This document shows positions 6,327 through 7,721 of a stretch of 16,714 nt of DNA, one piece after another. The notes beneath the pieces are model-generated. The model saw only the letters and a program-made list of their open reading frames with translations, was not told the origin of the DNA and ran no database searches. This stretch comes from Candidatus Thorarchaeota archaeon (GTDB lineage Archaea; Asgardarchaeota; Thorarchaeia; Thorarchaeales; Thorarchaeaceae). How positions within the stretch are numbered: position 1 is the first letter of the stretch; each line of letters begins with the position of its first letter. Both the position numbers and the translations under genes were made by a program. The stretch covers positions 1-16,714 of the forward strand of contig JBHLRS010000058.1 of the NCBI GenBank assembly GCA_048882325.1, given 5' to 3'.

Positions 6327-7721
6327 ATGTCAAAGAAAACAACCAAGAAGAGCACGGCTGCAAAGAAGACAACAAAAAAGACGACTACAAAGAAACCAGC
6401 AGCCAAGAAGCCAACCACGAAAAAGGCTGCTGCGAAGAAACCAGCCGTAGAGAAAACCACTGGGAAAAAGACGACTACAAAGAAGTCAGCAGCTAAGAAG
6501 CCAACTCCTGCTAAGAAATCGACCGAAGCAAGCTCAGCAATTGAAAAACACATGGAGAAACGCTTTGAAACCTTACGAGAGGAACGCAGACTCCCGCCAA
6601 GAGTCCTAGAGGAACTCCAGACTAAAATCTCAAACTTGGAGGTTACAAAGAAAGAGTTCGATGCAATTTGTGATAATGTGATAGAATCATACGAGCGCTC
6701 ACTTGTGGAACCAGGTGAGGCTGTGGGAACAGTTGCAGCTCAGAGTATTGGAGAACCTGGCACTCAGATGACTCTCCGAACTTTCCACTACGCCGGAGTA
6801 GCAGAACTAAGCGTTACGCAAGGTCTACCCAGACTGATTGAGATTGTCGATGCAAGAAACAATCCTAGCACTCCCACCATGAAGATTCACCTGGATGAAG
6901 AACATGCAAGCGATCGAGGCAAAGCAAGATCAATTGCCAGGAACATCGAAATGGTGCTTGTCGAGAGCGTTGCCAGCAATGTTTCAATTGACTTGCTCCG
7001 ACAAGCCATCGACATCCGATTTGACCCAGAGCTCATGGAGGACAAAGATCTCACAGTGGAAGCAATTGGAGAAGCAATACAAGAGAAAATCAAGGGCAAA
7101 GGAGAGGTTGAGCCTGGGGATAATACAATCTTTGTATATCCAGCAAACGAGTCTTTGGCCGAGCTCCAGAAACTAAGTGAGAAGATACGCGAAGTCCGAG
7201 TGAAGGGCATCAGTGATGTCACACATGTCGTGATTAGAAAGGAATCTGATGGATATGTGCTTTACACGGAAGGTTCCAATCTACAGGATGCACTTGAGAT
7301 TGAAGGTGTCAACCCTCACAGAATTTACACAAACAACCTCCGAGAGATTTTCCAAGTCCTTGGAATCGAGGCTACCAGAAACGCAATCATTCAAGAAGCC
7401 ATGAATGTACTCAATGAGCAGGGTATGGATGTAGATGTACGACACATCATCCTTGTTGCTGATATGATGACAGCAGATGGTACAATCCGCCAGATTGGAA
7501 GACATGGTATTTCTGGTTCAAAGAACAGCGCTCTAGCAAGAGCAGCCTTTGAGGTCACTATCAAACACCTCTTGGGAGCCGGAATCGCTGGGACACGAGA
7601 TCCCCTGAGGGGTATCACAGAGAATGTTATTCTTGGCCAGCTTATTCCTCTGGGTACTGGAGCAATCGACCTTCTCATGAATCCTCAGGCCACAACAACC
7701 AAGAGAAAGAGGAAGAAATGA
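6327..7721 (+). CDS. rpoA2: DNA-directed RNA polymerase subunit A'' (Rpo1C), 464 aa, with Lys-rich N-terminal extension and basic C-terminal tail
   Basis: Motifs [54 protein letters not shown]. Start placed at ATG 6327 because of a perfect GGAGGT SD at 6315-6320; the ORF-track start at 6159 lies inside rpoA1. Confidence 0.97.
6375..6505 (+). repeat. 41-bp direct repeat (6375-6415 / 6465-6505, 38/41 identical) within the Lys-rich rpoA2 tail
   Basis: AAAAAGACGACTACAAAGAA(AC/GT)CAGCAGC(C/T)AAGAAGCCAAC occurs twice, 90 nt apart, encoding KKTTTKK(P/S)AAKKPT. Confidence 0.9.

Follow-up and report, generated by a model that had tools for sequence, protein, structure and literature searches.

A lysine-rich N-terminal tail on RNA polymerase subunit A'' of Thorarchaeota: translation, turnover and possible role

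Archaeal RNA polymerase is used as the working model of eukaryotic Pol II, and no known organisms are closer relatives of eukaryotes than the Asgard archaea. In the window studied here, a stretch of 16,714 nucleotides from a Candidatus Thorarchaeota archaeon, the gene for the catalytic subunit A'' (Rpo1C) appears to open with a long lysine-rich segment. This raises the question of whether the segment is part of the polymerase at all and, if it is, what such a tail might do there. A sequence-only reading of the locus had pointed to a perfect GGAGGT followed by 64 residues with 25 lysines and a single acidic one, and the sequence does read so: there are 25 Lys, no Arg and one acidic residue (Glu), an excess of lysine with a binomial P of 3e-16 when set against the protein's own core, where Lys makes up 5.1%. 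That observation was confirmed. The interpretation built on it, of a disordered arm that would engage DNA or chromatin and could be modified, was partly supported when taken as a whole.

The full rpoA'' gene spans positions 6327-7721 and lies in the gene order rpoB-rpoA'-rpoA''-L30e-NusA-S12-S7, the neighbours having been identified by Pfam (Table 1). Its product is an ordinary member of the Rpo1C family plus an added tail. It matches the TIGR02389 equivalog model over residues 89-451 with 494.6 bits (cut-off 420.65) and PF04998 with E = 2e-56, and carries the trigger-loop motif at residues 142-157. The solved archaeal Rpo1C chains (8cro_C, 4qiw_C, 7ok0_C, 4ayb_C and 2pmz_C; 391-397 aa) match it in the 52-56% identity class from residue 74-86 onward, their own residues 4-20 being aligned to A'' 74-86. 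Every one of these chains lacks a tail, which bears out the earlier statement that characterised archaeal Rpo1C proteins are without one. Since the TIGR02389 match begins at residue 89 and ordered helices at about residue 67, some 66-75 residues are extra. A canonical N-terminus has at most about 20 residues before the first helix; the longer one of this A'' is an added feature and no argument against family membership.

Table 1. Features of the rpoB-rpoA'-rpoA'' region, in positions of the window
Feature	Position	Strand	Remarks
rpoB (unsplit Rpo2, 1123 aa)	284..3655	+	first in the rpoB-rpoA'-rpoA'' string; seven Rpb2 Pfam domains
rpoA' (Rpo1N, 885 aa)	3656..6313	+	stop TAG 6311-6313; Rpb1 domains 1-4 and domain 5 positions 1-66
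Open frame, mirror image, 84 aa, Phe/Val/Ala-rich	6299..6553	-	ORF list and translation
Shine-Dalgarno GGAGGT	6315..6320	+	6 nt upstream of the start codon; read from the sequence
rpoA'' tail-coding part, residues 1-75	6327..6551	+	translation and ortholog comparison, dN/dS, codon use
Weak tandem DNA repeat within the tail	6360..6505	+	Tandem Repeats Finder
ATG of Met76, start in the deposited gene call (389-aa product)	6552..6554	+	without Shine-Dalgarno site
rpoA'' (Rpo1C) conserved core	6552..7721	+	three-helix N-terminal domain, trigger loop from residue 142, jaw, cleft; stop 7719-7721
Short basic rpoA'' C-terminal end (TTTKRKRKK)	7692..7718	+	comparison of K/R counts across genera

Within the added segment, the stretch rich in Lys, Thr, Ala, Pro and Ser covers residues 3-66, and residues 67-75 (EASSAIEKH) run into the first helix. 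About one-third of all 75 residues are Lys, and the first 66-75 residues have a net charge of +23. The lysines recur with a rhythm, and none of 5000 shuffles gave an autocorrelation as high as that observed at lag 5 (z = 4.9) and lag 10 (z = 5.4); the DNA repeat beneath it is weak, with a 45-nt period (equal to three KKxxx units), 3.3 copies and 67% matches. The minus-strand open frame at 6299-6553 was considered as a gene and rejected, as it is a by-product of the Lys, Thr and Ala codons on the opposite strand. An AlphaFold2 model of A'' alone, made from a 25-sequence alignment, had the tail without secondary structure and its first confident helices from residue 67; with a mean pLDDT of 42 the model was poor along its whole length, and low confidence is therefore no distinguishing mark of the tail. 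The C-terminus of A'' was also observed to be basic, with four to seven terminal K/R in the genus of the window and three to four in a second tailed genus. In most tail-less genera it is neutral or acidic, and a few end in two or three Lys; in the two main tailed genera the N-terminal tail goes together with a basic end of the KRKRKK type.

Two start codons come into question for this gene. In the public collection A'' of this genome is a product of 389 aa that begins MEKRF, at Met76, and the deposited gene call therefore lacks the 75-residue tail; if that call were correct, positions 6327-6551 would be an untranslated spacer. Beyond the deposited product itself, the evidence runs against this reading. 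Met76 has no Shine-Dalgarno site (the 20 nt upstream are GCTCAGCAATTGAAAAACAC), whereas the ATG at 6327 is preceded by a perfect one. Our class sample comprised 87 Thorarchaeia genomes from 17 genera, in 70 of which the rpoA'' locus was read, and nearly all of these 70 loci have a GGAGG-type site 5-9 nt upstream of the orthologous start. Tail-less orthologs begin MSKST-x3-HMEKRF after the same GGAGG site, an SD-ATG-Ser-Lys start being common to tailed and tail-less forms, so that the ancestral start codon is that at 6327, and the tail has grown in frame between 'MSK' and 'IxKHMEKRF'. Over 41 tails of 23 different lengths (25-81 residues ahead of the anchor), the 7,104 nt of frame 0 are free of stops, while the other two frames have 27 and 161. 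Six species (G072, G083, G070, G047, G061 and G063), three of them tailed, have Ile, Thr or Ala at the position of Met76. The dN/dS of the tail lies below 1, its synonymous codons are mixed as in the core (AAG, for example, 69% vs 62%), and more than 100 public homologs of 433-464 aa are annotated with the tail. On this comparative evidence translation very probably includes the tail and begins at the ATG of 6327, not at the downstream Met, as the sequence-only reading had held, and the start at Met76 is disfavoured to the point of being hardly credible. Gene callers removed the tail in this genome, and any survey that relies on deposited proteins will therefore miss some of these tails.

Composition is all that is kept across the tails. 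The 41 tails contain K 34%, T 20%, A 13.5%, S 11%, P 7% and D+E 5.6%, with no aromatics, and Arg reaches just 0.7% although K-to-R is a single transition. Every tail that was scored (24 in the genus of the window and 12 in the second genus) has a net charge between +9 and +33. Among close relatives Lys was unchanged at 181 of 209 aligned Lys-bearing positions, spacer residues changed about twice as often, and indels were mostly of 5-7 residues, the size of one KKxxx(x) unit. The Nei-Gojobori dN/dS of the tail was 0.13-0.56 in each of 10 independent close pairs (core 0.02-0.09), values that are biased downward by protein-guided alignment of low-complexity sequence. On the strength of these comparisons, the tail is a translated, weakly but really constrained polycationic N-terminal segment of the catalytic subunit. 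With its high Lys content, few acidic residues and lack of aromatics in the 41 tails, it fits the profile of a polycationic disordered tether, which denotes a functional class and not a family of homologues. The regular KKxxx rhythm claimed for it is real in this species (lag 5), but it is not a conserved trait, since z reaches 2 or more in only about 19 of the 41 tails, nearly all of them from one part of the genus and a few from the second tailed genus.

The main rival to a tail that is selected for a role is tolerated low-complexity growth, in which a translated segment with no specific job would arise by slippage on an A-rich MSKST seed at a permissive, solvent-exposed terminus, and selection would merely remove harmful variants such as stops, frameshifts and hydrophobic or acidic runs. 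Unit-sized indels, weak DNA repeats and the fast turnover of tail length and sequence are all consistent with growth of this kind. A dN/dS below 1 in 10 of 10 pairs, the better retention of Lys than of spacers, and the low level at which Arg and acidic residues are held argue against it, as does the missing link to base composition; AT bias was rejected as the cause of the tail, tail-less genera having equal or lower GC3.

The distribution of the tail within Thorarchaeia speaks on both sides of this question. The tail was found in three of the 17 genera, and the other 14 genera and the single sister-family genome are without it. In the genus of the window the N-terminus was read in 25 genomes and all have the tail. 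The second genus has A'' in 14 genomes, with 12 tails read and two more proteins that match from inside the tail. The third is variable, with tails of 53, 49 and 25 residues (the last in G058) and almost none in G054. Retention in related genomes, which had been proposed as a check, was therefore observed among close relatives, but is limited to these three genera. The absence from 14 genera and the shrinkage in the third tailed genus are what tolerated growth would allow, and they indicate that the tail is dispensable; against such growth, the 36 genomes of the two main tailed genera whose tail was read include no case of its loss. One genome of a tail-less genus (G041) has two rpoA'' genes, one tail-less like its genus (of L032 on C143 and L067 on C26) and the other tailed and grouping with the genus of the window; this extra copy on a separate contig, in an assembly with 6% contamination as judged from marker genes, is probably foreign or contamination. 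Trees of the A'' core, and of the last 215 A' residues with the A'' core, leave the genera unresolved; the best tree has four changes for the tailed rows, and a single clade for the tailed rows passed the AU test (p-AU 0.12 and 0.23). The idea that tail-less genera compensate through a basic end of A' was rejected, since this end (...IEKVLGKxRxx) is nearly invariant across the class and the same in tailed and tail-less genera.

Beyond the class, nearly all of the matches listed from 400 genomes of the phylum begin at query residue 42-87, and hence are without the tail. Other additions were observed around the same junction. The A'' of another Asgard family opens with a short Lys run, after which two CxxC...CxxC zinc-ribbon-like modules precede the core (L079, G221:C10:153900-156100), and in a third family a K/E-rich extension of about 90 residues closes A', immediately before the start of A'' (L080, G032:C61:29700-31900). 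A search of 1.8 billion representatives for distant homologs recovered A'' proteins that have a Lys-rich N-terminal tail and share 40-45% identity with the core encoded in the window. In Undinarchaeales A'' (the P0157 cluster, P0276-P0287) the tail consists of one to six copies of an 18-residue Lys-rich unit, KKVTKVAAKKTVAKKTTE, all within one 90%-identity cluster whose members measure 437-527 aa, two of them seemingly called from internal starts. Two further lineages have A'' tails of 50-60 residues. These archaeal tails resemble that of the window in subunit, terminus, composition and turnover of repeat units, and differ from it in origin; the tailed cores are 44-45% identical to that of the window, against 73-84% for tail-less Thorarchaeia, and the 18-residue unit of Undinarchaeales is unlike the unit length found here. 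With Undinarchaeales and two further lineages counted, Lys-rich tails have thus originated repeatedly on A''. For tolerated growth, the copy-number polymorphism inside one 90%-identity cluster and the other junction extensions (the zinc ribbons in G221 and the K/E-rich A' end in G032) are favourable evidence; the recurrence of the tail on the same subunit in distant lineages weighs against it. Candidate HhH motifs in helical N-terminal extensions of A'' elsewhere (P0185, P0186, P0205 and P0246) remained below threshold, with HHH_5 at 18.6 bits (27 needed) and RecX_HTH1 at 23.8 (26 needed). Our literature searches found no published description of a Lys tail on A''; a survey of archaeal polymerase subunits from 2026 treats the extension of Thorarchaeota Rpo6 without any mention of lysine or tails.

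A separate irregularity was observed at the trigger loop. In three Thorarchaeia genomes, G055, G054 and G091 (L049, L050 and L077), the reading frame of rpoA'' is interrupted where the trigger loop is encoded, with another partial match kilobases away. Among distant A'' representatives, many align in two segments separated at query residue 146, a pattern suggestive of inteins or inserts there.

Lysine tails in this genome are not confined to A''. Scanning the whole assembly gave about ten more proteins with comparable Lys stretches, half of which handle nucleic acids and half of which do not. Those named by Pfam are S25e, L32e (with HhH), uL18, a long Top6A/Spo11 paralog, an HdrA/MvhD fusion, an FKBP26-type isomerase and a HEAT-repeat protein; a second HEAT-repeat protein and a membrane protein were labelled by eye only. 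The loci of S25e, uL18, L32e, the FKBP26-type isomerase, the HdrA/MvhD fusion and a HEAT-repeat protein (L084, L085, L086, L083, L088 and L087) lie on G000 contigs C36, C3, C52 and C42. In S25e the stretch is built from eight copies of a 14-residue unit of the type EEKKAAPKKTTKKK. The Top6A/Spo11 paralog (L082, G000:C14:16538-18694, minus strand) has 717 aa, which include a Lys-rich tail at the N-terminus, two HhH domains and a further Lys-rich linker; next to it lies a canonical paralog (about 352 aa), and both are present in nearly all 87 Thorarchaeia genomes. Rpo6 (L089:1366-2046, minus strand, G000 contig C1), at 226 aa, has an acidic N-terminus, an HhH-like IPGVGPKTAEKL, a short Lys-rich linker and the Rpb6 core. 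This long HhH form of Rpo6 occurs across the whole family and is missing from the sister family; the Rpo6 extension is mentioned in a 2026 paper (PMC13257274). Since the Top6A-paralog tail and HhH-Rpo6 are both family-wide, they were not gained together with the A'' tail, which occurs in three genera, and a single lineage-wide burst of lysine tails was rejected. Similar tails on HdrA, FKBP and a membrane protein of the same genome weaken a reading of the A'' tail that is specific to the polymerase and chromatin, and such tails on unrelated proteins also count in favour of tolerated growth. Taking both sides together, we regard tolerated growth as the main rival, possible but on the whole unlikely.

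The earlier reading had likened the tail to histone H1. In composition the likeness stands, as the tail shares with the histone H1 CTD, chlamydial Hc2 and the Burkholderia H1-like proteins a K/A/P/T content, Lys in large excess over Arg, and short repeats. It does not extend further, since A'' has no globular H1 domain and no exact S/TPKK motif and is a polymerase subunit, not a chromatin protein. All H1-like models, including that for HC2/Hc2, scored below their cut-offs (PF07382 29.4 vs 40 bits, NF038052 20.4 vs 135, NF038053 22.2 vs 80). The linker histone domain PF00538 matched neither A'' nor any protein of the genome, the genome search being a weak one as the control genomes held none either. 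Membership of the H1/Hc2 family was rejected on these scores and on the lack of a globular domain.

Closer precedents are found among enzymes that act on nucleic acids. Sulfolobus does supply a basic tail through the separate subunit Rpo13, as had been stated: its 20-residue lysine C-terminal tail is required for DNA binding, and deletion of the tail abolishes binding (PMC3479171). This is a Lys-rich disordered tail of an archaeal polymerase, as the A'' tail is predicted to be, and that of Rpo13 is unspecific and invisible in crystals (PMC2675907, PMC3479171). Rpo13 differs in being a small subunit of its own, which has a helix-turn-helix core and an acidic N-terminal tail and sits beside the downstream DNA, between Rpo5 and the clamp head, whereas the A'' tail is three times longer, belongs to the catalytic subunit and would leave at the split site, with no sequence relationship between the two. 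Rpo13 (PF12136) had no match in this 93%-complete genome, in a search whose control found the Sulfolobus acidocaldarius Rpo13. The A'' tail is an analogue of Rpo13, not a relative. In Streptomyces (actinobacterial) TopA, lysine repeats make the enzyme highly processive and stabilise its complex with DNA (PMC5714199). They resemble the A'' tail in being Lys-rich, variable in length, restricted to a lineage and fused to a nucleic-acid enzyme, TopA being one that tracks DNA (PMC5714199); they are bacterial, C-terminal and on another enzyme, so the analogy is one of mechanism only.

Given the Rpo13 tail and the TopA repeats as tested precedents, it is most likely that the A'' tail acts as an unspecific electrostatic tether to nucleic acid. 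The tail originated by in-frame expansion of a short ancestral N-terminus, MSKST, and goes on changing as KKxxx(x) units are added or dropped, its Lys content and low acidity being maintained by selection. Its first 66-75 residues are predicted to be intrinsically disordered and strongly cationic, through Lys and not Arg. The tail would leave the polymerase at the A'/A'' split site, just before the three-helix domain, an archaea-specific N-terminal domain of Rpo1C (PMC11515920); this exit site would correspond to the foot region of Pol II, between bridge helix and trigger loop. From there the tail may tether unspecifically to DNA or nascent RNA and raise local affinity or retention; as a rough estimate, a disordered chain as long as this would reach some 60-70 angstroms. 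As a whole, that is, as a translated, disordered and cationic A'' tail that is under selection and tethers the enzyme unspecifically to nucleic acid, this is the best reading of the locus, and one that we hold to be somewhat probable.

The target of the tail could also be something other than DNA, such as nascent RNA near the exit path, an acidic partner (e.g. the Rpo6 N-terminus) or a polyanion-rich condensate. In Sulfolobus the C-terminus of Rpo1C adjoins Rpo6 and the Rpo4/7 stalk (PMC2675907), and this end of A'' is basic too in the tailed genera; foot mutations in yeast Rpb1 release Rpb4/7 (PMC8875030), and this puts the foot region, in functional terms, close to the side of the stalk. These two findings make the stalk and RNA-exit side as plausible a location as the downstream DNA, and Rpo6 of this genome opens with an acidic stretch. 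The argument is a positional one drawn from other enzymes, and the HhH-Rpo6 fusion is family-wide and the tail is not, so that the two do not co-vary. We consider a non-DNA target distinctly unlikely. Very doubtful is a more elaborate proposal, according to which the N-terminal tail and the basic C-terminal end would form a selected, modifiable lysine 'tail code', with Lys acetylation or methylation and Thr/Ser phosphorylation tuning the engagement of histone-wrapped DNA or condensates, and with convergence in several archaeal lineages at the site of the eukaryotic Rpb1 foot insertion.

Returning to the unspecific tether, the tail is real and cheap to test; its importance is uncertain, and it is clearly dispensable in most relatives. 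Because such tails arose more than once and always at the same place, the A'/A'' junction is marked as a site where evolution adds new parts to the polymerase. If the catalytic subunit does have a built-in, histone-tail-like arm, it would offer a simple and testable case of a polymerase gaining unspecific affinity for its template, or a regulatory handle.
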